DNA of 29,221 bases from Candidatus Hermodarchaeota archaeon (GCA_016840065.1 JAEOTB010000116.1:1-29221); one strand, 5' to 3'. Positions 2,826-19,891 are shown, counted from the first letter of the stretch. A program made the numbers and translations. The notes: generated by a model not told the origin, from the letters alone.

Positions 2826-2937
2826 TCTAGACCTCCTTAATTATCCCGCAATCTCTTGAACTAGGTTCTATAAAAAAATGAATAACCCTCCTAATTGGGG
2901 TGCTGATTGCGCTATTCCTGGGTTTCGATGAACCATT

Positions 2938-2949
2938 AATGTTTAAGTG
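2938..2949 (+). promoter_or_regulatory. Putative TATA-containing promoter AATGTTTAAGTG of paralog 2
   Basis: Identical 12-mer upstream of paralog 3 (3968-3979); TTTAAG resembles an archaeal TATA box. Confidence 0.5.
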
Positions 2950-3061
2950 GACTAAACACTAAGGCGTGAGTATTCGGTTTGGGTATGATGTGTGATGAGC
3001 TGCCTCCCTGGTGGCTATGAATCTCGGTTCTGGTACCTAATCGAAGGATTGTGAAGAAATA

Positions 3062-3913
3062 ATGCGAAAAACAAGAATATTGAACATTCTAGTACTCGCG
3101 GTGCTCTTCTGTTCGGTATTGTCAATTGGGATGAGGTCAACGCCTGTATTGGCGCAATCCCCTACATCCATTCTAGTTTACACTCAATATGCTGATACTG
3201 ATACTGGCGGTGAGTTCGCAAACACGATGGATGCCATCAATGATACCTATGGTGCACTTGGTACGGCGTTCACTTACGAAAACCTGACAGATTACACTGC
3301 CCTAGCTACTGAGATAGAGGGGCATAACGTGTTACTCGTCGTTGAACAGGAAGACGTGACTACTACTGGGCAAATGACAACTGTTGGTACAGCGTGGAAT
3401 ACGACATTACGGAGCTTCGCCTTCCAAGGCGGCGTGATCATCGTTCTAGACTACGGTGGCTCATTCTATGGACCCGCGATCCATCTGCTCAACGCAACGG
3501 GAATGTTGCTCTTTCAAACTTCGGTTGGCTGGGCAAATCATAACTACGCGACATTGAATACTGTCAATATTGTGAACTCGACGGATTCCCTTGCCTCTGG
3601 GGTACCGAGTTCCATGACCGCAACTGATGGCACCATGAGTGTGTATACAAATGAAGGTGTTGTTGTCGCAGAAGACAACACCGGTCATGCAGTTGTAATC
3701 CACAAGCGGTGGGGTCTCGGTCATATCGTCTATTGCGGCTTTGACTTCTTCAACCCCAATAGCAATTATGCTAGAATCCTATCGAATGCGGTCGGTCTGA
3801 CACCTGAACTACCCCCTGGAATTCCTGGCTTCCCCGTTGAGGCCATTGCCATTGCCCTTGTCTCGTGCTTGGGTCTCGGTATTATTGTGCGGCGACGCCG
3901 CGAGGTGAACTAG
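3062..3913 (+). CDS. Surface protein with signal peptide and PGF/Loki-CTERM-like sorting tail; paralog 2
   Basis: N-terminal signal peptide, many N-x-S/T sequons, tail PPGIPGFPVEAIAIALVSCLGLGIIVRRRR. Confidence 0.85.
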   Translation: MRKTRILNILVLAVLFCSVLSIGMRSTPVLAQSPTSILVYTQYADTDTGGEFANTMDAINDTYGALGTAFTYENLTDYTALATEIEGHNVLLVVEQEDVTTTGQMTTVGTAWNTTLRSFAFQGGVIIVLDYGGSFYGPAIHLLNATGMLLFQTSVGWANHNYATLNTVNIVNSTDSLASGVPSSMTATDGTMSVYTNEGVVVAEDNTGHAVVIHKRWGLGHIVYCGFDFFNPNSNYARILSNAVGLTPELPPGIPGFPVEAIAIALVSCLGLGIIVRRRREVN

Positions 3914-7231: not shown

Positions 7232-7912
7232 TTATACGGCGGCACTCAAAATGCGATAGGTGCGAGTGCTCTGTGCTTGAGGATTATCTTGAGCTATACT
7301 TAGAAAACGATGAGCTGCATCAGGGTCATCAAGGTCAAGGGCGCTTTCAAAGGCTGCAAAACAGCTCGCGGACAAGCCTGCTTCTTGAGCGGCGGCTAGG
7401 TGGCTGCTGAGGCTCCCCATTCCAAAGTGTAGTTGAAGAACTGAAGGTGGGTGGAGGTAAAGGATGTTCGTACCACTACCCCGCCAGTCTTGTGCCATCA
7501 TTAAGCAGGATTGCTGATAGCCTCCTTGTATCATCTGGTCGAGAACTTTTCCTGTGAGGAGAGGTAAATCAGCTAAAATTATAACGACGGCTTCAGCGCC
7601 TTTATCCTCAGCGTATTGTATGGCTTCTGTTAGTTCACCGTTAAGCCCTGCCACTGTTGGTGGAAACACGTCGTGTCCTCGCTGATGTGTTACTTCCTCT
7701 AGTTCAGCATCGCTGGTTACGACAATGATGTCCTTGATTGTGCTCGCGTTCTCTACAGCGTCTAGAACATCTTCCAGCATTGCTTGAACGAGTGCATGCC
7801 TTTGCGAATCCTCTAGTAGTGTGGAGAGACGATGCTTGGTTGAGGGAAAAAGTCGGACGGGAATAATCGCAGTAGTGGAGGGACTTGTCATCGATTGGCT
7901 CTCAACTCCCAT
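7232..7912 (-). CDS. cofC: 2-phospho-L-lactate/PEP guanylyltransferase (F420 biosynthesis)
   Basis: AIIPV...KHRLS, AMLEDV, GLN, ADLPLL, GSGTN, HFG..S...H and LDLDDPD motifs. Start may be ATG 7891. Confidence 0.9.
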   Translation of the reverse strand: MGVESQSMTSPSTTAIIPVRLFPSTKHRLSTLLEDSQRHALVQAMLEDVLDAVENASTIKDIIVVTSDAELEEVTHQRGHDVFPPTVAGLNGELTEAIQYAEDKGAEAVVIILADLPLLTGKVLDQMIQGGYQQSCLMMAQDWRGSGTNILYLHPPSVLQLHFGMGSLSSHLAAAQEAGLSASCFAAFESALDLDDPDAAHRFLSIAQDNPQAQSTRTYRILSAAV

Positions 7913-9282: not shown

Positions 9283-10929
9283 TCAGTAGAAGGTTTCGAG
9301 CACGTCGTAGGCGATGTTGTCAGCGTGGTCACTGATACGCTCTAGATTCCTGAGACTTTCAGTGAACAGCACATCTGCTGCGGGAGCACAGATTCCCTCC
9401 TTCATCCGTTTGATGTGGGCCTTCTTGAGCTGCTTCTCCAACATATCGACTTCGTCCTCCATCTCGATTGCCATCCTAGCTTTACTTCTACTCTTCTCTT
9501 TCAACGATTCGATAGCTGTGAAATAAGTCAACTCTACTGCTTCGAATAATCGCTTTATGCCCGCTCTTCCTTCATCCGAGAAGGGAACCTTATCCTTCTC
9601 CTTTCTAATGGCGAATTCAGCGAGGTTGTTGCACAGGTCTCCAACTCGCTCCACATCAGTAATTATCCTTAGCAGCCTAATCCGCCAAAGTTTGTCTCTT
9701 TCAGTCAAGTCCTCTTCACGAATTCGGTCGATGAATTTCTCGGTCTCGTCGCAGTAATCGTCTACTTCATCCTCAAGTACTAGTACTTCTTTTGCATGAT
9801 CGAGCTTCCCATCAACCATCGCGTCTTTGCTCTTGACTAGCATCTTGAGGGTTTTTTCTGCTGTCTTCACGATTTCTCGCTCAGACTCTATCAAAGCAAG
9901 CTGGGCTATTCCGAGCATCTTATCATCAAAGTAGTGACGTGGTCTGAGTTCTCCTTCTCTTACGGGAATCACCTTCTCACAGAACCAAACCAGCGCCCCC
10001 ACGAAGGGAATGAACATCACACTTACAATGACGTTGAAGATTGTGTGGGCGTTAGCGATTTGTCTTTGCAAGTCTATGTGTGTCAGCCTAACAAGTTCTG
10101 TAAAGGGTGCAAGAAATGGAAAGAAAAGTATAATTCCGATGATATTAATCATAGATTGAGCTAGAGCAGTTCTCTTGGCCGGCCTTGTTGCACCAATCCC
10201 TACAATGAGTTCGAGAATACAGGTTCCAAGATTTGCTCCAATGCATAGAGCGATTGCCGCTTCTAGACTAATGAAGGTTTCACCAAGACCAGCCATTGCA
10301 ATGACAAGGCTGGTTGTAGCTGAGCTACTCTGAGTTACACCAGCAATCAATGCTCCAATAAGAATACCGTAGAGGGGAATCATCCCCCAAGAAGCTACCA
10401 AAGATTCAAAGATTGGAAATTCTGAGAGCTTTCCGAACCCTCCGCCTAGGAGTTCCATTGCAAGGAATAATAATCCTAAGCTAAACACTACTTTTGCTGT
10501 GAGTTTTACCTTCTCGTTCTTTGTGATGTAACTTGTGAAGAAACCTATTGCGATCAATGCTAGATAAAAATCTACACTGATGTTAAAAGCTGCAATTTGG
10601 GCAGTTATTGTAGTCCCAATCTCCGAACCAAGCATTACATTGACAGATTGTCTGAAGGTCATTATTCCCGCATTTACTAGCCCAATCAAAGTCATGACAG
10701 TTACGCTAGAACTCTGGGTCATGACTGTAGTGCCCGCACCCACGAACATGCCTGTCACTGGGCTGTTGGTTGTCTTTTCCAGAATCTTGGATATCTGTCT
10801 ACCTGATATCTTTCCAAGGCTATCGCTCAAAAGCGATATACTATACAACAGGATGGCAAGCCCTCCTATGATGTTAAAAAGAAGGATTGCAGTGCCCAAG
10901 ATTAGATTCAGGAGCGATAAGGGATCCAT
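9283..10929 (-). CDS. Na/Pi cotransporter family protein with C-terminal PhoU-like domains
   Basis: Two QSSS repeats, GSEIGTT/GANLGT, IANAHTIFN; PhoU-like DVERVGD and NLERISDHADNIA. Confidence 0.93.
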   Translation of the reverse strand: MDPLSLLNLILGTAILLFNIIGGLAILLYSISLLSDSLGKISGRQISKILEKTTNSPVTGMFVGAGTTVMTQSSSVTVMTLIGLVNAGIMTFRQSVNVMLGSEIGTTITAQIAAFNISVDFYLALIAIGFFTSYITKNEKVKLTAKVVFSLGLLFLAMELLGGGFGKLSEFPIFESLVASWGMIPLYGILIGALIAGVTQSSSATTSLVIAMAGLGETFISLEAAIALCIGANLGTCILELIVGIGATRPAKRTALAQSMINIIGIILFFPFLAPFTELVRLTHIDLQRQIANAHTIFNVIVSVMFIPFVGALVWFCEKVIPVREGELRPRHYFDDKMLGIAQLALIESEREIVKTAEKTLKMLVKSKDAMVDGKLDHAKEVLVLEDEVDDYCDETEKFIDRIREEDLTERDKLWRIRLLRIITDVERVGDLCNNLAEFAIRKEKDKVPFSDEGRAGIKRLFEAVELTYFTAIESLKEKSRSKARMAIEMEDEVDMLEKQLKKAHIKRMKEGICAPAADVLFTESLRNLERISDHADNIAYDVLETFY

Positions 10930-11100
10930 AGATAACAGCTTCCAGCGCTGACGATTTTCACGGTATTCGATGGGGAGATTAACTGGGGTTAAAACAGCAT
11001 TCCTCGTTCAAAGCAATTCTAATACCGCGAGGCGGCAGAGGTAAGGAGAATAAAGAAAGAACTGAGCAAGCGCTGAACCTAGATGAAGGATTAAGATTCT

Positions 11101-11772
11101 TCATTCATAATAACCTGGAACCTCTCCAGAGCGACCCTTTTCACGCGATAGTTTGATGCGCCTGAAGAGTATTGCAAAGAGATAGCCGCCAACGAAGCCG
11201 AATACATGAGCTCCATGAGCGATACCGCCACCAAAAGAGGTTACTAGAAACATTATCTCAAGAATGAAGTAGAATATGATGAAGTTCCAGGCTGCCATAT
11301 CCCGTCCGGTATCACCGTAACCTGCCCAAGAGATGCGTCGCCGTGGTATCAAGTAGGCGAACCCTGCCATTACTCCGAAAATCGCGCCCGAAGCGCCGAG
11401 GGTTGGTATCAAGGGAGCCCAAGGGAAGAATATGCCCTCAAGGGTGTATGTGATTAGAATGTGGCCTAGGTTTCCAACTATTCCTGAGAGCAGATAGAAG
11501 GGTATGAAGATTAGGGGACCAAGCTCTTTTTCTACCATTCCGCTAAAGATGTAGAAGAAGTACATGTTGCTGAGGAGGTGGTAAGGGTCTGCGTGGAGAA
11601 ACATGCTGGTAATCAAGGTGTGGAGATTTTGGCCTTGTAGGATTTCTGCTGGAACCATTGCAAATTGCCAAAGGGGAGTCATGTATTGTAGGATGTGGAT
11701 GCTGACATTCAATAGGATTAGTGTGTAGGATACAAAGGGTCTGAACCCGATGTCGTAATCATCATAACTCAA
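11101..11772 (-). CDS. Rhomboid intramembrane serine protease
   Basis: TSMFLHA..HL..NM, catalytic GASGAI and AHGAHVFGF. Confidence 0.93.
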   Translation of the reverse strand: MSYDDYDIGFRPFVSYTLILLNVSIHILQYMTPLWQFAMVPAEILQGQNLHTLITSMFLHADPYHLLSNMYFFYIFSGMVEKELGPLIFIPFYLLSGIVGNLGHILITYTLEGIFFPWAPLIPTLGASGAIFGVMAGFAYLIPRRRISWAGYGDTGRDMAAWNFIIFYFILEIMFLVTSFGGGIAHGAHVFGFVGGYLFAILFRRIKLSREKGRSGEVPGYYE

Positions 11773-11902: not shown

Positions 11903-12280
11903 GTGGCCCTCCGTGAATTCCTCTACCCCACTCTTGAGCTCAAGCTTATACTTGCCCGCCGCCTTGATGCAGATACAGCTGCTGCCAAGCATGGAGTACT
12001 CTCCCCCGCTTACAGGGAGGCAGCTGCGAAGATAATACTCTCCGTCCCAGATGCGCAAAGGCTAGATGTGAAAGACGGTGATGCCGTGCAGGTCACATCG
12101 AAAACTGGAGAAGTGGTGGTTTTAGTCCATATCGATGACAAAACACCTGGAGGTTTGGCTATTATGTCCCCAGGCCCCTATGCTAATGCTCTACTCCCGG
12201 CGTCTCTACCGCACCAAGGTATTAGCATTACACTCAAATCCACCGATTCTGCAGTAACTCTAGTTGAGAAGCTTCCTTGA
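11903..12280 (+). CDS. fwdD: FwdD/FmdD-like molybdopterin dinucleotide-binding subunit (divergent)
   Basis: DAQRLDVKDGDAVQVTSKTGEVVV and PGGLAIMSPGPYANAL. Start uncertain (GTG 11903 after GGTG; track gives 11813). Confidence 0.7.
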   Translation: MALREFLYPTLELKLILARRLDADTAAAKHGVLSPAYREAAAKIILSVPDAQRLDVKDGDAVQVTSKTGEVVVLVHIDDKTPGGLAIMSPGPYANALLPASLPHQGISITLKSTDSAVTLVEKLP

Positions 12281-12283
12281 CGG

Positions 12284-13684
12284 TTAGTCTTCTTTCGGCT
12301 CTTCACGGGGTTCTTCCTTTGAGGGTTTCTCCAGTTGTCCCCTTTCGAACTTGTATCGGAGTCGCCAATCTTGGCGTAGCTGGAGCTGGATTTTCCTTAT
12401 TCGTGCTTTAGCTTCTTCGCGAACTGCATCGGCTCTTGGCCAGTCTTCGGTAGAGGTGGGTAGAGTTGTAGGTTTGGTGCGTGATTGAATCTTGATCTGT
12501 CGTTCATATTGGTTGCTGGGTGGAGCTTGCTTGCCAACGAGTATGTCGAAGAAGAGACTGGCACGGGCTCGTTCCCAGGCGCGTGCTTTCTCCAGCGAGG
12601 AAAGCCGGTAGCTTTCTCTGGTAACTCTTAGTACTTGTTCTGGGCAGGCGTTCTCACAGGCACCACAGAAGACGCAGATATCCTCCTTTACTGCGAGTTT
12701 CTGTTTGTCTCCTGTTGCATAGATTGCCTTTGTTGGGCAGATATTAAAGCAGTTAACGCAGCCTGTCGGGTCGCAGCGTTCTAGGTGTTCAATGTGGACT
12801 TTTCCTGTGAGGGGTAGAGTGACATCCAACGCCTCATAGGGACACTTCTGCGCGCAGAGAGTACAATCTACACACTTCTCGTCGTCGATGGTGAGTTTTC
12901 CCTCTACTTTGGGTTTCCGGACAGTTCGGGGGGGTGCGGATGTGCAGGTAACCTTGATGGCTTCAGAGGGGCATATCTCTTCGCAGAGCCCACAATAGTC
13001 GCATTGTTTTGTGTCGACCCTTATATCCACCGCGGGTTTGAAGTCTGGAGGTTTAGGTTCTTCATCTTCTAACCAGTAGATGGTGATACATTCGGGGCAA
13101 AGGAGTTCGCATAACCCGCACCATGTACACTTGTCTTCTGAGATTTTTATGGTCCCCTTTGCGTCTGGGCGGCCTTCTGCTACGCGTTTTGCGGCTTCAG
13201 GGTCCTTGTATTTTACTAGTTTGGTTTTCGGTTTGACCTTCACATCCACACTTAGAGCGTCTCTTGGACAGATTTTTGCGCATAGCAGGCAGGGTGCACA
13301 CTTCTCCTCATCGAGGACATGATGTCCCTTTAATCGGGCGTATTCAAGTTCAGCTGGTGTTTCATCAAAGTTAGCCTCGAGAGCGTTGAAGATACAGGCT
13401 GAGTCACATAGACCACAGAAGGTACATTTGTCCTCATCGATTAAGATCAGAGGAGCGCCCTCTAGACGTTTTGCTGCGACCTCTTGCACTGGTCCCATCG
13501 TGATGGCTTCCCAGGGGCAAGGCAGGCAGAGGCTACAACCCACGCAGCGGGCTAGGTCATATTTTAAATCCTTGGCGAGAAGGGAGGTCTTCCAATTATA
13601 GCGTATGTTGGTGTCGTCGAGGATTTCGGTGGTTACCTCTGGACGTTCACCGACAATGATGCGATCTCGCTGGGCCTTTGTCAC
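12284..13684 (-). CDS. fwdF: Polyferredoxin, FwdF/FmdF-like (about eight [4Fe-4S] motifs)
   Basis: Eight CxxCxxC..CP-type motifs; N-terminus CVGCSLC..CPWEAITMGP...IDEDKCTFCGLC resembles FwdF; overlaps hdrA stop by 4 nt. Confidence 0.8.
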   Translation of the reverse strand: MTKAQRDRIIVGERPEVTTEILDDTNIRYNWKTSLLAKDLKYDLARCVGCSLCLPCPWEAITMGPVQEVAAKRLEGAPLILIDEDKCTFCGLCDSACIFNALEANFDETPAELEYARLKGHHVLDEEKCAPCLLCAKICPRDALSVDVKVKPKTKLVKYKDPEAAKRVAEGRPDAKGTIKISEDKCTWCGLCELLCPECITIYWLEDEEPKPPDFKPAVDIRVDTKQCDYCGLCEEICPSEAIKVTCTSAPPRTVRKPKVEGKLTIDDEKCVDCTLCAQKCPYEALDVTLPLTGKVHIEHLERCDPTGCVNCFNICPTKAIYATGDKQKLAVKEDICVFCGACENACPEQVLRVTRESYRLSSLEKARAWERARASLFFDILVGKQAPPSNQYERQIKIQSRTKPTTLPTSTEDWPRADAVREEAKARIRKIQLQLRQDWRLRYKFERGQLEKPSKEEPREEPKED

Positions 13685-16137
13685 TCGTCTTCATCCTCCT
13701 TTTCCACTAGTTCGGTACCTAAGGGTCCTAGACGAGTGATTTGGTTGACAAACTTTGTGATGTGGTCAGCTAGTTGACGGCCATCAGATGCAGGTGTACT
13801 ATCTAGGAAGAGACGGCGTTGGTCTATGCTTGCCTCGGCAAGAAGCGGTACCAGATTCTCAACTCGGTTACGAGCCTTTGTGAAGCCAGTTCTGTGGTGA
13901 CAGTCCTGCTCGGGGCATCCCAGGACTGCTACACCATCCGCTCCTTGACTGAAGGCCTGAAGGATTAGAATGGGGTCAATCCGAGCTGCACAGGGTACTC
14001 GGATAGGGATTAACTGAGGTGGGAACCGGATTCGTTCTATGCCTGCAGTGTCTGCAGCAGCATAGGCACACCAATGACATAGGAAGCCGATAACTTTGGG
14101 TTGCATCGGGTTGTTCTCACATGCCGCCTTTACTGCTGCCGACAATTGGCTGTGGGTGTAGCCAAATAAATCGAGGGCACCTGTTGGACAGGCGGCAACG
14201 CAAGCCCCACATCCGGTACACGCCAGTTCGTCAATTACTGGTGTATTCTCCTTGGAGAAAGTTATTGCGTTCGCATCGCAGTTCTGTTCACAGAGTCGGC
14301 AGCCTTGACAGAAGCTGGGCTCTGCTAGAAAGGCGGAGTGGACCTCGATGGCAAGCTTCCGTTTAGCGAGGAGTGAGGAGACCTTCGCGGCTGCTAGCCC
14401 TGCATGAGCCACGGTATCTGCAATGTCCTTTGGTCCCTGAGCGGTTCCCGCAAGAAAGATACCTGCAGAATAAGTGCCTGAGGGATCAAGTTTGGGATGC
14501 TTCTCTAGGAAGAACTGATTCGTGTCTAAGGGCACTTTGAGAAGTCCAGCTAGAATGGGGTTTGTGGGTGTGGGGTCGATGCCAACACTCAGGACTGCCA
14601 GGTCCACGGATATCTCCATTGGTTGGCATAACTCGGTGTCCTCTGCTCGGATAATCAGTTGATGGGTTTGAGGGTCTTCTTCGATTTTCCCAACTCTGCC
14701 ACGGATGAATGTGATGTCGTGATCCAAGGCCGCTCGCTCGTAGAACTCTTCAAAGCCTTTCCCGAAGGTTCGCATATCCGTATAGAACACATACACCTCA
14801 GTGTCGGGTTCGGCTTGACGTAGCTGGACGGCTTCCTTCACGGCGTAGGTGCAGCAAACTCGGCTGCAATGAGGACGATTTATTCTTTGATCTCTGCTTC
14901 CAACGCATTGTACGAAAGCGACTCTTCGAGGTGTTTTTCCTGTGGAGGGACACACCACCTGGCCTTCTGTTGGACCAGCGGGGTTCAGGAACCGTTCTAG
15001 CTCGGGTGCCGTTACCACATCACGATACTTGCCATAGCCGTACTCGCCGAGTATTCGGGGGTTGAAGGGTTGGAAGCCCGTCGCCACCACGATTGCACCT
15101 ACCTTGAAAGTGTGAGTTTGTTCAGTGTCGTCAAATCGCAGAGATTCCTTTTCGCAGACACCAACGCAGGACTGGCAGCCTACACATGAATCCATGTCGA
15201 TGTGGGGTGCTAGTGGGACGGAGCTTGGATAGGGTCTGATGATGGCACGTTGATTCCCTAAGCCATAATTGTAATCGCTAACCACTTCGACTGGACAGAT
15301 TTCCAGGCAACGATTACACCCATTACATGATTCTAGGTCCACATAGCGGGGCTGCTGTTGGACGATTACCTTGTAATCGCCAGGGGTGCCTTCGACTGCT
15401 TTCACTTCGCTAAGGGTAAGAAGCTGTATCCTTGAGTGATTGTCTACTTCAGTCATGAGGGGTCCAAGGATACAGAGGCTACAGTCTAGTGTGGGGAACA
15501 GTTTGTCCCACTTTGCCATGTGGCCTCCGAGGAAACCGCTCTTCTCTACAAGCACTGTCTTGTATCCAGCATTGGCAAGGTTTAAGGCAGCTGTGATGCC
15601 AGCTACTCCACCACCGATTACCAGCACCCTCCTTGTGATTGGCACAGTAACCTTGTGGAGGGGGAGGCTGTGTTCAGCCATGAGTAGAGCCGCATCAATC
15701 ATTACTTGAGCCTTTGTTGTGGCTCCTCCGGGATCGTCCCAGTGAACCCAACTGCATTGTTCGCGAATATTCGCGATAACAAGATGCCCTCGATTGAGTT
15801 TAGCCTCCTCTACTGTTTTACTCATGAGCTCTCCGTGCAAACGTGGGGAACAAGCAGCTACAACGACTCGTTCTACCTTATGTTCTCTAATTGTATCTTT
15901 AATTAGGTTCAATCCTTGTTCTGCGCAGAAATGATCATCAGTTACCAGGAGAAGGTTGGGGAGTCCCTCATATCGTAGTTTCAAAGTGGCAAAATCTATT
16001 ATTCCATCGATGTTGCTGCCACATTGACATAAGAAAAGGGCTGTTCTGTGAGAGGGATTTTTTAGTTTGAGCTTATGGGAATCCCTCTTGACTACTTGTT
16101 TTGTAGGGGGGTTTTTCTCCTTAGCTCTTCGTGGCAC
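13681..16137 (-). CDS. hdrA: Heterodisulfide reductase subunit A fused to C-terminal MvhD [2Fe-2S] domain
   Basis: CQCG, ACSP, REQCSWVH, GGGVAG, FPTLDCSLC, QCVGSRD, CSRVCC, GPKDI, ferredoxin domains; MvhD motifs FLCHWCAY, VPCAARID, GC...DCH. Confidence 0.95.
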   Translation of the reverse strand: MPRRAKEKNPPTKQVVKRDSHKLKLKNPSHRTALFLCQCGSNIDGIIDFATLKLRYEGLPNLLLVTDDHFCAEQGLNLIKDTIREHKVERVVVAACSPRLHGELMSKTVEEAKLNRGHLVIANIREQCSWVHWDDPGGATTKAQVMIDAALLMAEHSLPLHKVTVPITRRVLVIGGGVAGITAALNLANAGYKTVLVEKSGFLGGHMAKWDKLFPTLDCSLCILGPLMTEVDNHSRIQLLTLSEVKAVEGTPGDYKVIVQQQPRYVDLESCNGCNRCLEICPVEVVSDYNYGLGNQRAIIRPYPSSVPLAPHIDMDSCVGCQSCVGVCEKESLRFDDTEQTHTFKVGAIVVATGFQPFNPRILGEYGYGKYRDVVTAPELERFLNPAGPTEGQVVCPSTGKTPRRVAFVQCVGSRDQRINRPHCSRVCCTYAVKEAVQLRQAEPDTEVYVFYTDMRTFGKGFEEFYERAALDHDITFIRGRVGKIEEDPQTHQLIIRAEDTELCQPMEISVDLAVLSVGIDPTPTNPILAGLLKVPLDTNQFFLEKHPKLDPSGTYSAGIFLAGTAQGPKDIADTVAHAGLAAAKVSSLLAKRKLAIEVHSAFLAEPSFCQGCRLCEQNCDANAITFSKENTPVIDELACTGCGACVAACPTGALDLFGYTHSQLSAAVKAACENNPMQPKVIGFLCHWCAYAAADTAGIERIRFPPQLIPIRVPCAARIDPILILQAFSQGADGVAVLGCPEQDCHHRTGFTKARNRVENLVPLLAEASIDQRRLFLDSTPASDGRQLADHITKFVNQITRLGPLGTELVEKEDEDE

Positions 16138-16293
16138 TTGTCGTCACCGTCACAATTCTCTTTCTGATGTGCACGCTGAATGTTTTAATCCTTGTTTATT
16201 TACGAAATCTTGTTACCGAGTTGTAGTTGCCGAAGAGATAAATGGGGTTCCTCTTGTGATTGTTATTTCAGCCATTGACTCGGTGTTGGCGTT

Positions 16294-16752
16294 ATGGCAA
16301 AATTGAATCCGATGCAGATATACAAGTTACTCCCGAGGACAAACTGTAAGAAGTGTGGGATGATATGTATGGCTTTTGCTACACGCCTAGCTCTCCGGGA
16401 GGTCTCACTGGAGGAGTGTACACCGTTGGCTGAACCAGGGTTTGAGGAGCAGCTAACAAAGCTTCAAGAAATGATTGCTCCCCTATTAACTGCTGAGGAG
16501 ACTGGAATCAAGCTTGACGAAGAGAAATGTTCAGGTTGTGGGAACTGTGTTGTGGTATGCCCCGTGGATGCAAAGACAGAGCATGATACAGCATTCGGTA
16601 AGGCAGCTCGTACCGGTGAAACGGTGTTCCGGGTAGAGAATGGCATAGCCTTGATTATTAACCTGAGCAAGTGCCGACGATTCCCACCTGACCGTGTGAA
16701 TTGTCGTGTCTGTGAGCAAGGCTGCTCTGCCGGTGCTATTGAGATATGGTAG
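16294..16752 (+). CDS. fwdG: FwdG-like ferredoxin with N-terminal FeS (LPxxNCxxCG) domain
   Basis: LPRTNCKKCG..CMAFA...C, then CSGCGNCVVVCP and C...CRVCEQGC; directly upstream of fwdB. Confidence 0.72.
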   Translation: MAKLNPMQIYKLLPRTNCKKCGMICMAFATRLALREVSLEECTPLAEPGFEEQLTKLQEMIAPLLTAEETGIKLDEEKCSGCGNCVVVCPVDAKTEHDTAFGKAARTGETVFRVENGIALIINLSKCRRFPPDRVNCRVCEQGCSAGAIEIW

Positions 16753-16775
16753 ACAAAAAACGGGTGAACTAGGCG

Positions 16776-18065
16776 ATGAAGGATACTGTTTGTACTGGAT
16801 GCTCACTCTTCTGTGATGATGTTTGTGTCAAGGTAGAGAAAGACAAAATAAATTCCTTAGGACTCTGCAGACTGGGTCAAAGTTATTATGAGTCACTTCT
16901 CAACCCAGATCGTCTCGTAAAACCCCTCCTACGAGTCGATGGCGGCAAGGGAAAAGAAAGTTCCTATGATGAAGCTTTGGAACATGCAGCTAACATTCTT
17001 CGAGGCAGTAAGAGGCCGCTTCTTTTTGGTTGGTCTAAAAGCCCAAATGAAGTTATCAAATTAGGGTTAAAACTTGCCCGTAATTTGAGAGGGAGTTTTG
17101 ATAGTACTGCTAGCCTTGAGTACGGTTCACTCCTTGAACACGGATTTTCAGGTGGAGAAGCGAACCTTGTCAGCTTCGATGAAGTACGCAATCATGGTGA
17201 ACATGTTATCTTTTGGGGTGCAAACCCTGCAGAGAGCCATCACCGTCTTGCCAGCCGCTTCGCTGTTTTCCCCATCGGTGACAAGGTCCCCGAGGGTAGA
17301 GAAAGCCGAACAATAACCGTCATTGATATCAGAGAAACAGAATCTATTCGCCTTGCCAATCACCAACTCGTAGTGAAAGGTGATAAGGCAGACGCTGAAT
17401 TTCTCTCAGCATTGCTAAAGGAACTTGAAGGAACAGACACCACACCACCAGATTATGTTGCTGGTATTCCTGCAATTGAGTTTCTCAGCCTTGTCAAACA
17501 GCTCAAGCTTGCAGATTATATTGCAATATTCTATGGAAACGGGTTATTACACTCACCTCATACTGATACCACGCTTCCCTTACTGGCAAAGTTAGTCTCC
17601 ATACTCAACACGGAAAAACGAAAGTGCACATCACTCCCCCTAATATCTCATAGCAACACAATAGGTGCAGTGAAAAGTTGCCTTGCAGACACCAAACTAC
17701 CCTTTGCCATTGATTTCAAATCAAATTCACCAGTATCCTTCTCACCCCTACAAAGCCTACTATCAAACGACTTTGATGCAGGACTAGTTGTTGGTGTTGA
17801 TGCACTGAGTTTTCTACCTGGGCCTGCTGCCCAGAAGCTAGCAAAAATACCTATAATCGCCTTATCCTCTCTTCCTTCTTTGACAACCCAACACGCAGAA
17901 GTTGTAATTCCAAATGCACTTACTGGTGTGGAGGCAGAGGGCACAGTTAATCGCATGGACGGAGAATCCCTTACCCTGAAACCACTCCATTCACCTCCCA
18001 AAGGTCTGTTAACTGAAGAACAGATTCTTACTCAGCTGCTACAATTTGGATCCGATTCGAGCTGA
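16776..18065 (+). CDS. fwdB: Formylmethanofuran dehydrogenase subunit B homologue, apparently catalytically degenerate
   Basis: CTGCSLFCDD...CRLG, FWGANPAESH.R..SR, DIRETES, GVEAEGTVNRMDG. Lacks the CHG metal-ligand motif and the Arg of RGHYN. Confidence 0.88.
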   Translation: MKDTVCTGCSLFCDDVCVKVEKDKINSLGLCRLGQSYYESLLNPDRLVKPLLRVDGGKGKESSYDEALEHAANILRGSKRPLLFGWSKSPNEVIKLGLKLARNLRGSFDSTASLEYGSLLEHGFSGGEANLVSFDEVRNHGEHVIFWGANPAESHHRLASRFAVFPIGDKVPEGRESRTITVIDIRETESIRLANHQLVVKGDKADAEFLSALLKELEGTDTTPPDYVAGIPAIEFLSLVKQLKLADYIAIFYGNGLLHSPHTDTTLPLLAKLVSILNTEKRKCTSLPLISHSNTIGAVKSCLADTKLPFAIDFKSNSPVSFSPLQSLLSNDFDAGLVVGVDALSFLPGPAAQKLAKIPIIALSSLPSLTTQHAEVVIPNALTGVEAEGTVNRMDGESLTLKPLHSPPKGLLTEEQILTQLLQFGSDSS

Positions 18066-18170
18066 GCACAATCGCCCCTAATTGCCTCTGTAAGATTTGA
18101 AAGGTTTTTAATGCATTCTTGAGTATCTAGCTCAGTGAGAAGGATGCTCCACCGATTGTATTGGTCCTCC

Positions 18171-18992
18171 ATGATGATTACTGACAATATCATGTCGCTT
18201 CGGGCTGGGAAGACTGTTTCACCGACATTCATTGCGCAGCTTCAACGTTTGGTCCCCGGTGTGAACCTTTCCTCTCTTGATATCGAAGGCTATGAGAAAC
18301 TCCTCGCGGACATTAAACATCAGGTGGGTGACAGAGAAAGAGCAGTTGTTGACCTAGCTGTCGCCTTGAATTACTTGAGGTTCAAGGTCGAAGGAAGAGA
18401 TGTACCCCTTAAAGGGAGCTATCCGAGGCAGATAGAGAAGGCGATAGCTATCTTGGCTCCGAGCGCAGAGGAGTTCATTCAGATTATGCTGGAGCCATCT
18501 AAAGACAAGCTTGTTATGATAGCCAGTGTAACCTATCTACACTACATTGTCGAAGGGCTTGTTTTTTCATTAGAAGAGGAACGCGTGGCTTCTTTCTCGT
18601 TGGGTGTGGAACAAGGAGTGGGATTGTTTCTGGGATTCTTGCAATCAATGGCTAGTGATTTTCCCACAGAGTTCGGACGAAGTAGCATAATCCAAAGCAC
18701 TCGTCACCTTTTCAAGAGTGAGATTTTCGAGAAACTTCTACTACTTGGCTCATCAAATCCTGAGAAAGGGCATTTGTGGGTGAGCTATCTGAAGGCAATC
18801 CTTGATAAAGACCACATCAAAGTTGAGCAATGTATCGACGAGATACTGAGATTTTATCCTCTCCTCAAAGAGTCTCTTGCCTTCTATTCGAAGGCGGCTT
18901 TGAGAGTCTCTGGTGAACACTTGAATCAAACTACAATGGTGGCGATTAGACCTCTTTGCCTGCAAATTGGAGCATCAATTGCTGGGCTATAG
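18171..18992 (+). CDS. Hypothetical, predominantly helical protein
   Basis: Long ORF filling the gap, no recognised motif. Start uncertain (18135/18171/18192). Confidence 0.65.
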   Translation: MMITDNIMSLRAGKTVSPTFIAQLQRLVPGVNLSSLDIEGYEKLLADIKHQVGDRERAVVDLAVALNYLRFKVEGRDVPLKGSYPRQIEKAIAILAPSAEEFIQIMLEPSKDKLVMIASVTYLHYIVEGLVFSLEEERVASFSLGVEQGVGLFLGFLQSMASDFPTEFGRSSIIQSTRHLFKSEIFEKLLLLGSSNPEKGHLWVSYLKAILDKDHIKVEQCIDEILRFYPLLKESLAFYSKAALRVSGEHLNQTTMVAIRPLCLQIGASIAGL

Positions 18993-19087: not shown

Positions 19088-19891
19088 GTGTTGAAAGTGA
19101 AGATTGCAGTTTGCGGTAAAGGCGGTGTCGGTAAGACCACTGTATCAGGAACTCTTGCTCGATTACTCGGCCGGGAGGGAACGAAGGTACTGGCTGTTGA
19201 TGCAGATCCTAATCACACTCTATTTCTTTCACTCGGTATTCCGCCTGAGGTTGCTGAGAAAATTGTACCCCTAACTGAAAACGATGAGCTGGTTCAGGAG
19301 AGAACGGGAATGGAGGCGGGGCGCAGCTTCGGTGGTATGTTCAAGCTTAACCCGCGTGTGGATGATTTAGCAGCCAAATTTGGTGTTCCAGCACCAGACA
19401 ATGTGACGCTCCTTGTGGCAGGAACTGTTCAGATTGGCGGGTCTGGTTGCATGTGTCCTGCTGGGGCCCTCCTGAAGGCTCTTATACGCCACCTAATCGT
19501 TGGTAGTGGTGAAGCTTTCGTGATGGATATGGAGGCTGGTATTGAGAACTTGGGACGGGGGACAACCCGAGGGATGGACGCCCTCGTCATTGTTGTTGAA
19601 CCAGGATACGGTGCGATAACTACTGTAGGGCGGATTCAGAAACTAGCTCGGGACATCGGTGTAGATCGGGTGTTAGCCGTTGCGAACAAGGTCACCAGTG
19701 AACAGGACCGCAAGACAATCGAAGCTGCCCTTGCTGAACGCGGTGTTCCTTTACTTGGTGTTATTCCTTTTGATAAGGAGATTCATGAGGCAGGTCTTCT
19801 GGGGAAGGCACCCCTTGACCACGCGCCAGATAGTCTGGCGATGCGGGCTGTACAAGAGTTCTTGGGAGAACTCCGAGTGATTCTTGGTTAA
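19088..19891 (+). CDS. cooC: CODH/ACS nickel-insertion ATPase CooC/AcsF
   Basis: KIAVCGKGGVGKTT, DADP, GCMCP (CxC), DMEAGIENLGRGT. Confidence 0.92.
   Translation: MLKVKIAVCGKGGVGKTTVSGTLARLLGREGTKVLAVDADPNHTLFLSLGIPPEVAEKIVPLTENDELVQERTGMEAGRSFGGMFKLNPRVDDLAAKFGVPAPDNVTLLVAGTVQIGGSGCMCPAGALLKALIRHLIVGSGEAFVMDMEAGIENLGRGTTRGMDALVIVVEPGYGAITTVGRIQKLARDIGVDRVLAVANKVTSEQDRKTIEAALAERGVPLLGVIPFDKEIHEAGLLGKAPLDHAPDSLAMRAVQEFLGELRVILG

Follow-up and report, generated by a model that had tools for sequence, protein, structure and literature searches.

An archaeal Fwd-Hdr redox module in Hermodarchaeota combines an intact HdrA-MvhD with a FwdB-like subunit that has lost its CO2/formate-site residues

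The gene cluster described here lies in a contig of 29,221 nucleotides from Candidatus Hermodarchaeota archaeon (GCA_016840065.1 JAEOTB010000116.1:1-29221; this whole stretch is hereafter the window). Judged by its sequence, it is the Hermodarchaeota version of the archaeal "Fwd-Hdr" redox module, of which named relatives already exist: five of its genes are syntenic with loci of Methanosarcina sp. Ant1, of Bathyarchaeia and of other Asgard archaea. The account we favour, which we place just on the probable side, is that of a Fwd-Hdr module with a disabled FwdB/FwdD pair that handles low-potential electrons mainly with CODH/ACS. The module comprises a flavin-based bifurcating HdrA fused to MvhD, an eight-cluster FwdF-type protein, a three-cluster FwdG-type protein and the FwdB/FwdD pair, and across Asgard archaea and Bathyarchaeia its genes are found within the CODH/ACS (cooC-cdh) gene cluster or next to it.

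The reading frames agree with the description in an earlier sequence-only reading of this DNA. The gene for the FwdD-like subunit occupies 11903-12280 on the plus strand and encodes 125 aa from a GTG at 11903; its frame is open back to 11813, and its homologues begin with MALRDF, in agreement with the start at 11903. On the minus strand, the genes for the FwdF-like polyferredoxin (12284-13684, 466 aa) and for the HdrA-MvhD fusion (13681-16137, 818 aa) overlap by 4 bp. The hdrA gene is divergent from the fwdG-like gene, and both promoters are presumed, by position only, to lie in the intergenic region at 16138-16293. The plus strand then carries the fwdG-like gene (16294-16752, 152 aa), which the sequence-only reading had left unnamed and whose product is a ferredoxin extended at its N-terminus by an additional [4Fe-4S] domain, followed after a gap of 23 bp by the fwdB-like gene (16776-18065, 429 aa) and, further on, by a gene for a CooC-type nickel-insertion ATPase (19088-19891, 267 aa). 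Between fwdB-like and cooC sits a lineage-specific plus-strand ORF of 285 aa (18135-18992) with no match in Pfam or NCBIfam; a homologue with 79% identity occupies the same place in genome G079, whereas two further members of the genus lack the ORF here and have 107 and 144 bp between fwdB-like and cooC. The synteny of fwdD-like, fwdF-like, hdrA-mvhD, fwdG-like, fwdB-like and cooC extends across Hermod-, Thor- and Baldrarchaeota and Bathyarchaeia. The order of the module genes is kept in all 18 genomes of the family, and the head-to-head layout of hdrA and fwdG-like recurs in those Hermodarchaeota and Thorarchaeota relatives whose loci hold both genes.

HdrA matched the solved chains 8RVU and 5ODC over its full length (E values from 4e-181 to 2e-176) and retained, relative to them, all cluster cysteines, the Glu of ELER and the Lys of CC.Y..K, which bears out the earlier view of an intact HdrA with both flavin-near residues. 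It scored 898 bits with the HdrA2 model NF040770, under the cut-off of 1100, and its fused MvhD domain matched PF02662 (E = 8.5e-41). The polyferredoxin scored 222 bits with the FwdF model NF042909, likewise under the cut-off (375). It contains 34 cysteines, with seven motifs recognized by pattern and one atypical N-terminal motif, CVGCSLCLPC, which together suggest eight [4Fe-4S] sites, and it ends in a charged tail of about 90 aa. The FwdG-like protein has 12 cysteines and three predicted clusters. Its residues 71-127 match the FwdG chains 9SFI_U (E = 1e-11) and 5T5I_G (E = 4.5e-9), while residues 4-72 gave matches to PF04060 and to the Fe-S domain at the N-terminus of the large subunit of CFeSP (CdhE).

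The FwdB-like subunit differs from solved FwdB at the catalytic residues. In an alignment with the solved chains 5T5I_B and 8RJA_B, TASVCHG corresponds to TASLEYG and PMRGHYN to PLISHSN: Cys118 is replaced by Glu115, His119 by Tyr116 and Arg288 by Ile290. None of the three CO2/formate-site residues remains, as the replaced motifs had led the sequence-only reading to propose. An equivalent of Arg288 was absent from every CTGCS-type FwdB examined. The four N-terminal cysteines that had been read as [4Fe-4S] ligands are all present (C6, C9, C13 and C31); they align with the ligands of 5T5I_B and are invariant in alignment A2. Since the module FwdB of Hermodarchaeota and Thorarchaeota lacks the Cys-His-Arg site, the canonical CO2/formate reaction is not expected of it. 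The remainder of the protein is FwdB-like in profile and predicted fold. With TIGR03129 it scored 328.3 bits, a borderline pass of the cut-off of 327.8. Among 55 columns conserved in Cys-His FwdBs, 43 are retained in the FwdB-like protein and 34 in its Thorarchaeota counterparts; about eight of the 12 that are not retained are real replacements, the Cys-His and Gly-His motif positions among them. An AF2 model (pLDDT 93.7) superimposed on FwdB/FmdB (5T5I_B, 8RJA_B and 7BKB_H) with TM scores of 0.90-0.93; it is a single-chain model, canonical FwdBs were part of its input alignment, and it says nothing about cofactors.

The partner subunit is also altered. The FwdD-like protein scored 41 bits with PF01568 and matched the NCBIfam FwdD model (E = 2e-10) and FwdD chains in the PDB (E values from 5e-8 to 2e-4). 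The erosion previously noted in it was seen again: LARR stands where the canonical FwdD of the same genome has TGRT, and the GMPxxKG loop is short of six residues. The Arg is nevertheless kept.

If the gene pair were merely decaying without a function, raised substitution rates would be its trace, and dN is indeed elevated relative to neighbouring genes. The non-synonymous rate of the fwdB-like gene exceeds that of hdrA, fwdF, fwdG-like and cooC of the same cluster, and at 0.192 its dN is about five times that of the canonical fwdB (0.034). With a dN/dS near 0.12, where the canonical FwdB of the same genome has 0.03, the gene is nonetheless under purifying, though relaxed, selection. Reading frames are unbroken in every Hermodarchaeota and Thorarchaeota genome examined, and synteny is kept across the two classes. 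The Glu-Tyr pair is invariant in 48 of 48 full-length homologues, which are 49-100% identical and Asgard-labelled wherever labelled. Because only 76 of the 429 positions (18%) are invariant in this 48-member clade, conservation of the pair indicates that the substitutions are not the product of chance or random erosion. Decay is disfavoured by these selection data, and we regard it as the most improbable of the readings.

The same conservation also speaks for a neofunctionalised pterin enzyme, an account to which we assign a minor but appreciable probability. Here FwdB(Glu-Tyr)/FwdD would bind a W/Mo-bis-pterin, with the Glu as ligand or in the second shell, and another two-electron reaction would feed or drain the HdrA flavin via FwdG and FwdF. 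Carboxylate ligation by Asp is known from Nar-type Mo-bisPGD enzymes. Few positions separate the protein from Cys-His FwdBs, and the Pfam molybdopterin-oxidoreductase model PF00384 gave 28.3 bits, equal to the 28.9 bits of the canonical paralogue; the Thorarchaeota FwdB-like proteins gave no PF00384 score. Fhc, which is pterin-free, lacks the FwdD pterin cap; in Hermodarchaeota the cap persists, conserved Arg included, and the full-length FwdB fold is retained in the model, with the reservation that canonical FwdBs contributed to the model and that no cofactor information went into it. Together, the Glu-Tyr invariance, the 43 retained columns, PF00384 and FwdD are no less compatible with a still-occupied pterin pocket and altered chemistry than with an empty scaffold. 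Because both the FwdD cap and the generic sequence signature of pterin enzymes are still present, the scaffold-only reading of FwdBD falls short of being established. Against the enzyme stand the rapid evolution of the FwdB-like protein, faster than canonical FwdB and than all its cluster partners, and the loss of the GMPxxKG loop. We know of no Glu-ligated member of the Mo/W-bisPGD superfamily. Moreover, the former active site is variable in the Thorarchaeota sister clade, where the Cys position is mostly Gly and the His position has no consensus; as these pairs keep FwdD and synteny despite a degenerate site, retention does not need catalysis. The most specific form of the idea, in which a W/Mo-bis-pterin with a Glu carboxylate ligand and an adjacent Tyr would carry out a new redox reaction via FwdG/FwdF to bifurcating HdrA, coupled to acetyl-CoA synthase, appears unlikely to us. 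Such a first shell, if true, would to our knowledge be new to the superfamily. In the reading we favour, by comparison, the Glu-Tyr site is presumably not catalytic.

A known FwdB homologue without a catalytic metal site is FhcB, from the formyltransferase/hydrolase complex of Methylorubrum (6S6Y). The sequence-only reading had raised the alternative of an independent Fhc-like, formate-releasing complex, with a cofactor-free FwdB as scaffold for a formyl-methanofuran-hydrolysing amidohydrolase. The loss of catalytic residues does resemble that in FhcB, and a conserved amidohydrolase of 400 aa lies between cooC and cdhA in the Hermodarchaeota genus g2. The match of this enzyme to FwdA, however, is N-terminal and amounts to just 30 bits, and in the genome studied here the enzyme is encoded on contig C22. 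Neither the window nor the conserved cluster core contains a homologue of FwdA, FwdC or Ftr. Fhc is devoid of a D subunit and its loops are remodelled (PMC11656701), whereas the Hermodarchaeota pair keeps both a FwdD-like subunit and the [4Fe-4S] site. FhcB has 355 aa and the partners FhcA/C/D, with no Hdr or polyferredoxin context, and the TM score of our model to it (6S6Y_F) is 0.66. The reading would also leave HdrA, along with 11 other predicted Fe-S clusters, without a role. The alternative is thus not supported, and we consider it very improbable. The structural matches also included (TM 0.6-0.7) the C-terminal domain of NuoG/Nqo3 of respiratory complex I. This domain is a cofactor-free Mo-bisPGD fold retained for structure, in some versions with an Fe-S cluster. 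It is distant, fused into a larger subunit and devoid of a FwdD-type cap, and is an analogy rather than a close relative.

A connection to CODH/ACS, which had been guessed from the adjacent cooC, was borne out by comparative synteny. The CooC protein aligned with Carboxydothermus CooC1 (3KJE; E = 4e-44), and its deviant Walker A sequence GKGGVGKT and metal-binding CxC motif (C-M-C versus C-Y-C) were both matched. It is the only close CooC1-type protein encoded in the assembly, the one weaker paralogue (33% identical) adjoining cdhE on contig C67. In Thorarchaeota and in Hermodarchaeota genus g2, cdhA and other cdh genes come after fwdG-like, fwdB-like and cooC on the same strand, and most Hermodarchaeota and Thorarchaeota loci have cdhA and more cdh genes downstream in this orientation; in Baldrarchaeota and Bathyarchaeia, cdh genes adjoin the module. 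In numbers, cooC follows fwdB-like at 17 of 17 Hermodarchaeota loci, a same-strand downstream cdhA lies within 6 kb at 9 of the 12 that are testable, and cdh genes lie within 10 kb at 10 loci; in the class without the Cys, mostly Thorarchaeota, same-strand downstream cdhA was found at 25 of 26 testable loci. On this synteny, the module is probably an electron wire towards CODH/ACS. The papers cited here describe no physical contact between module and CODH/ACS. A homologous hdrA-pfd transcript of M. acetivorans is three times higher on acetate, that is, during CODH/ACS-dependent growth (PMC2838876).

In the genome studied here, cdhABCD is on contig C2 and cdhE on C67, neither adjacent to the module. 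Compared with the other loci, the cdh genes of its own genus have moved to other contigs and cooC alone has stayed; the lack of adjacent cdh genes in this genus counts against the CODH/ACS reading.

As had been claimed, no fwdA, fwdC or hdrBC occurs in the window; it has no CCG-domain gene either, and homologues were found on other contigs. A search for canonical fwdABCD, which had been proposed as a check, recovered the full set on contig C107 (FwdB/FwdD at 29641-31518, FwdA at 15387-17042 and FwdC at 2832-3623), and HdrB-type genes lie on C27, C78, C51, C64 and C20. FwdA or FwdC was present at none of the 17 Hermodarchaeota module loci, and a FwdA-type gene lay within 10 kb at 1 of 34 loci without the Cys. 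The CO2/formate reaction would then be left to the separate canonical set. These genes raise another account, which seems to us rather doubtful: that the module is the electron input of the real Fwd (FwdABCD on C107), with nothing specific to CODH/ACS, and that the FwdB/D-like pair is an inactive paralogue for assembly or regulation. No FwdF or FwdG gene accompanies the canonical fwdBD, fwdA or fwdC loci, and the assembly yielded no FwdF-type or FwdG-type gene besides those in the window, although at 84% completeness others may be missing. Among other Asgard families, in Jordarchaeia, in f15 and at one Baldrarchaeum locus, fwdA lies within the homologous cluster, and methanogen Hdr-Fmd supercomplexes work in this manner (PMC13580544). 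The account leaves the lasting same-strand cooC/cdh link in Hermodarchaeota and Thorarchaeota unexplained, and FwdG is normally seated on a FwdB of its own, whereas here its gene is 23 bp from the disabled copy.

Among the closest known systems, fwdG2B2D2 and hdrA1-pfd of Methanosarcina, a cluster named by Rohlin and Gunsalus in 2010 (PMC2838876; HdrA2/MA2868 in other numbering), likewise encode HdrA-MvhD, a polyferredoxin, a FwdG-like protein, a CTGCS-type FwdB-like protein and FwdD, without FwdA/C. Methanosarcina sp. Ant1 (locus L126) has the five genes head-to-head exactly as in Hermodarchaeota, and its genus also lacks Arg288 in the module FwdB. The Methanosarcina and Methanothrix proteins, however, keep the Cys (Cys-Leu or Cys-Gln) where Hermodarchaeota have Glu-Tyr, and in Methanosarcina no cooC follows fwdB-like and cdh genes are rarely nearby. 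In Ca. Methanonezhaarchaeum YNP3N, a "Fwd-Hdr" cluster with a second FwdBD copy, Hdr, FwdF and FwdG stands apart from the catalytic FwdABCD, as in Hermodarchaeota, and electronic coupling has been proposed (Kohtz et al. 2025, PMC12700198). That cluster has HdrBC, and its FwdBD is a proposed formate-oxidising electron donor (PMC12700198), whereas the Hermodarchaeota cluster lacks HdrBC, its FwdB no longer has the formate/CO2 residues, and its relatives lie in a CODH/ACS neighbourhood. The Hdr-Fmd/Fwd supercomplexes of methanogens (7BKB; M. marburgensis, M. maripaludis; PMC13580544, PMC13518236) contain the same subunit families, including a full-length HdrA with all clusters, and the low-potential branch of the Hermodarchaeota module would likewise lead from HdrA via FwdF and FwdG to FwdB. 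They differ in having an active W/Mo end site, FwdA/C, HdrBC and an Mvh or Fdh donor, and Asgard-type FmdF falls outside both structurally characterised FmdF groups.

The electron-transfer chain of solved Fwd structures terminates at the cluster of FwdB, so a wire running through this subunit would call for an additional docking partner. The gene cluster encodes neither HdrBC nor an electron donor, which likewise counts against the reading we favour. In the Fwd-Hdr module with a disabled FwdB/D that we favour, the most likely role of the FwdB/D-like pair would be that of an Fe-S-bearing structural and electron-transfer subunit, which would hold FwdG and FwdF in a complex on the low-potential side of HdrA. 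We infer that the module would either give low-potential electrons to CODH/ACS, its presumed partner, or take them from it, and it may in addition serve the canonical Fwd, for which the assembly contains no dedicated FwdF/FwdG gene.

Labels of close homologues assign the window to Candidatus Hermodarchaeota (Asgard archaea). The locus comprises seven genes between positions 11903 and 19891, as delineated by ORF calls and family searches in contig C126 of an assembly of 2.59 Mb that is 84% complete. A FwdD-like gene (11903-12280, plus strand) is convergent with a minus-strand pair overlapping by 4 bp, composed of a FwdF-like polyferredoxin (12284-13684, 466 aa) and an HdrA-MvhD fusion (13681-16137). 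Head-to-head with this pair, the plus strand carries a 152-aa Fe-S protein (16294-16752), a FwdB-like gene (16776-18065, 429 aa), a 285-aa ORF (18135-18992) and a CooC-type ATPase (19088-19891). The 152-aa protein, which was omitted from the sequence-only reading, is a FwdG homologue: its residues 71-127 match FwdG in both 9SFI and 5T5I. It has an additional N-terminal [4Fe-4S] domain of the type that opens the corrinoid Fe-S protein CdhE, and three clusters are predicted from its 12 cysteines. The 34 cysteines of the FwdF-like polyferredoxin were interpreted as eight cluster motifs.

Several further features of the locus were recorded. The FwdF-like protein ends in a Lys/Glu/Arg-rich tail (12284-12560, approximately residues 376-466) that continues for about 90 residues after the last cluster motif. 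All FwdF proteins of the module in Hermodarchaeota and Thorarchaeota are 440-497 aa long, compared with 349 aa for M. wolfeii FwdF, and the charged tail may serve in docking or oligomerisation. The 285-aa ORF had no family match; two genomes of the genus lack it, and a third has it in the same spot (L021:569-1417), with 79% identity. In this assembly it is neither a repeat nor a mobile element. Beside the FwdD-like gene lie genes for a CofC-like guanylyltransferase (7232-7912) and a rhomboid protease (11101-11772). Since both genes also border the cluster at most examined loci of g2, another Hermodarchaeota genus, local synteny extends past the redox genes.

The feature described in the sequence-only reading is real, and every statement it made about the sequence was borne out. 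In alignments to the solved FwdB chains 5T5I_B and 8RJA_B, the FwdB-like protein keeps the four cluster cysteines and has lost the catalytic residues, with Glu115-Tyr116 replacing Cys118-His119 and Ile290 replacing Arg288. The FwdD-like protein is eroded as claimed: six residues of the GMPxxKG loop are missing, while the (T)GR(T) Arg is kept. HdrA, which had been called intact, aligned end-to-end with solved HdrA and has all cysteine motifs, as well as the ELER Glu and the CC.Y..K Lys. These two correspond to Glu356 and Lys409 near the flavin in the structure of M. wolfeii HdrA. The C-terminus of the protein is a fused MvhD domain.

The genes reported as missing from the window, fwdA, fwdC and hdrBC, are indeed missing there, and all were found elsewhere in the assembly. 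A canonical fwdB (with SVCHGP and PMRGHFN motifs) and fwdD are located at C107:29641-31518, on a contig that also carries fwdA and fwdC, the latter adjoining mch. Two further hdrA loci with hdrB lie on contigs C27 and C78, one of which also has mvhD and a [NiFe] hydrogenase. Several HdrB/D-type genes occur in the assembly without a neighbouring hdrA, and none of the HdrBC type was found in the module cluster. Directly upstream of the canonical fwdD-fwdB pair are genes for proteins of 343, 340 and 479 aa (G000:C107:31522-35041; L140:3523-7042), for which no NCBIfam match was obtained. Homologues of the 343- and 340-aa proteins adjoin the Fwd-Hdr module in Baldrarchaeota and a Thermoproteota genome (L049:14182-16268, L071, L088).

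The Glu-Tyr substitutions are fixed, not eroding. The motif STAS[LF]EYG is common to about 55 homologues of 50-77% identity, Asgard wherever labelled. Among the 48 full-length relatives (pairwise identity 49-100%, median 58%), Glu115 and Tyr116 are invariant in 48/48 and belong to the 76 of 429 positions that do not vary. In a maximum-likelihood tree, the Glu-Tyr clade is monophyletic (SH-aLRT 99) and sister (95) to a Thorarchaeota clade. The latter has diverged to a comparable degree, but its active site is variable, the Cys position being mostly Gly and the His position having no consensus. Both clades are nested in a larger subfamily with a CTGCSLLCDD-type N-terminus, whose other members retain Cys: Cys-His in Bathyarchaeia, Jord- and Baldrarchaeota, Cys-Gln in Methanothrix, Hodarchaeota and one Baldrarchaeum locus, and Cys-Leu in Methanosarcina. 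Arg288 is absent from every member of this subfamily, with Ala, Ser, Val, Ile and others in its place. Its absence was also observed in CTGCSLLCDD-type FwdB copies sharing an operon with fwdA in Jordarchaeia. The loci lacking Arg288 are L047, L050-L054, L071-L076, L103, L107-L109, L114 and L116-L134, with fwdB at about 10001-11280 in most.

Rates of evolution were compared with those of the canonical paralogue in the same genomes. Against G022, a genome of the same genus, the FwdB-like gene had a dN of 0.192 and a dN/dS of 0.12, while canonical FwdB had 0.034 and 0.03, and the dN/dS was 0.05 for HdrA, 0.03 for the FwdG-like gene, 0.06 for FwdF (partial) and 0.07 for CooC; because dS against the nearest relative that could be used was 1.1-1.7, near saturation, these ratios are meaningful only as a comparison between genes and not as absolute values. 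Within the genus, identity is 93-94% for canonical FwdB and 73-77% for the FwdB-like protein; between genera, it falls to 77-78% and 53-56%, respectively. Together, these patterns indicate that the FwdB-like gene is functional, yet constrained clearly less than catalytic FwdB. A pseudogene was excluded by the selection data.

Whether the FwdB/D-like pair still holds a pterin is a matter on which the evidence points both ways. Several findings favour retention. Of the 55 columns conserved in at least 90% of Cys-His FwdBs, the Glu-Tyr clade keeps 43 and the Thorarchaeota clade 34; about 8 of the 12 columns not kept in the former are true replacements, including the Cys-His and Gly-His motif positions. 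The window protein scores as well against the Pfam molybdopterin-oxidoreductase family (28.3 bits) as its canonical paralogue (28.9 bits), and the Thorarchaeota proteins give no score. In Fhc, pterin loss is attributed to a missing D subunit together with loop remodelling in B (PMC11656701, review). Here, the FwdD cap is kept, and the AF2 model of the FwdB-like protein (pLDDT 93.7) is predicted to resemble FwdB/FmdB (TM 0.90-0.93) more than FhcB (TM 0.66). Set against retention are the faster change of the FwdB-like protein, the loop deletion in the FwdD-like protein, and the Thorarchaeota, which have FwdD and the same synteny though their site is plainly degenerate. The kept D subunit and the TM values leave an Fhc-like, formate-releasing complex, one of two functions proposed earlier, unsupported.

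The strongest result of our analysis is the genomic context. The order fwdD-like / fwdF-like, hdrA / fwdG-like, fwdB-like, cooC is kept in 18/18 family genomes searched and in Thorarchaeota. At one Thorarchaeota locus, where cooC overlaps the fwdB-like gene by 4 bp, the module is followed directly by cdhA, cdhB, cdhC, cdhD, cdhE and a second cooC-like gene. In a set of 80 named loci, 25 of the 26 testable ones in the Cys-less class (mostly Thorarchaeota) had cdhA downstream on the strand of the fwdB-like gene. In Hermodarchaeota, it was so placed within 6 kb in 9 of 12 testable loci, with cdh genes within 10 kb in 10 loci and cooC after the fwdB-like gene in all 17 (17/17). The cdh genes also adjoin the module in Baldrarchaeota and in two Bathyarchaeia/Thermoproteota loci. 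In the window's own genus they are separated from it, with cdhABCD on contig C2 and cdhE and a cooC paralogue on contig C67. The window cooC is the only close CooC1-type gene of the assembly, its CxC motif aligning to 3KJE. In view of this context, it is what remains of an association with CODH/ACS at the operon level. The CODH/ACS connection, initially guessed from the adjacent cooC, is thus matched by relatives in which the locus continues into cdh genes.

In g2, one to several genes lie between cooC and cdhA, usually including an ICMT-like membrane protein and a 400-aa amidohydrolase (L057:12204-14161; same position in L058, L060, L061, L064-L070 and L073). The amidohydrolase is 72-87% identical among genomes, conserved far beyond the FwdB-like protein; it matches FwdA only at the N-terminus (30 bits), and no homologue was found in the fetched non-Hermodarchaeota loci at E 1e-20. 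Its orthologue in the window genome is G000:C22:8364-9554, where an ORF listing of the neighbourhood suggested no link. The same genus has one or two genes of 460-570 aa on the same strand between hdrA and fwdF (L033:13803-15527, L035:13653-15344, L036:4302-6005, L037:4124-5506, L038:2658-5806, L039:3080-6158), which are absent from the window. They were rejected as HdrBC, having hydrophobic, signal-peptide-like N-termini and no redox motif apparent by sequence inspection.

In solved Hdr-Fmd/Fwd assemblies, low-potential electrons pass from HdrA via FmdF, then FmdG, to the cluster of FmdB and its metal site (PMC13580544). Since all parts of this low-potential branch are present at the locus, the CO2-reducing site excepted, we interpret it as a module for low-potential electrons. 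Most likely, it would be built on a bifurcating or confurcating HdrA, the FwdB/D-like pair would serve mainly as an Fe-S-bearing structural subunit, and CODH/ACS would be the functional partner. We infer that the subunits form a complex, and likewise its partner, its donor, its high-potential acceptor and the direction in which electrons flow. The wiring proposed in the sequence-only reading is therefore supported in part: its CODH/ACS branch stands by synteny, its Fhc-like alternative does not. As a separate explanation, the module may also serve canonical FwdABCD, since no FwdF- or FwdG-type genes were detected in the assembly other than those of the window.

The module itself is known, though functionally unexplained; the Hermodarchaeota locus adds a new lineage variant. 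Methanosarcina carries the same genes under the names fwdG2B2D2 and hdrA-pfd, with hdrA-pfd expression three times higher on acetate (PMC2838876); in Methanosarcina sp. Ant1 (L126), the two sets are likewise head-to-head. In 2025, a 'Fwd-Hdr' cluster was described in Ca. Methanonezhaarchaeum, with formate oxidation on behalf of Hdr proposed for its second FwdBD (PMC12700198), and Asgard-type FmdF falls outside the two structurally characterised groups (PMC13580544). We found no description in the literature of disabled copies in Asgard archaea, of the invariant Glu-Tyr or of the link to the cdh operon, and the cluster goes unmentioned in the termite-gut Bathyarchaeia paper. New here are the invariant Glu-Tyr contrasted with the degeneracy in Thorarchaeota, the evolutionary rates set beside those of the canonical paralogue from these genomes, and a genus in which the cdh genes parted from the module and cooC remained.

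These results address two questions: what supplies or takes up the very low-potential electrons of CODH/ACS in non-methanogenic Wood-Ljungdahl archaea, and what role Hdr proteins have in such archaea without CoM-S-S-CoB. A conserved HdrA-polyferredoxin module that lies within the cdh cluster or next to it in Thor-, Hermod- and Baldrarchaeota and in Bathyarchaeia is a concrete, testable candidate. In complex I, NuoG is a Mo/W-pterin-type subunit kept as a pure Fe-S scaffold. The Glu-Tyr of Hermodarchaeota and the degenerate site of Thorarchaeota form a natural experiment on whether such a subunit becomes a pure Fe-S scaffold or acquires new chemistry. The module is relevant, too, to fwdG2B2D2 and hdrA-pfd, its unexplained counterparts in the genetically accessible Methanosarcina.
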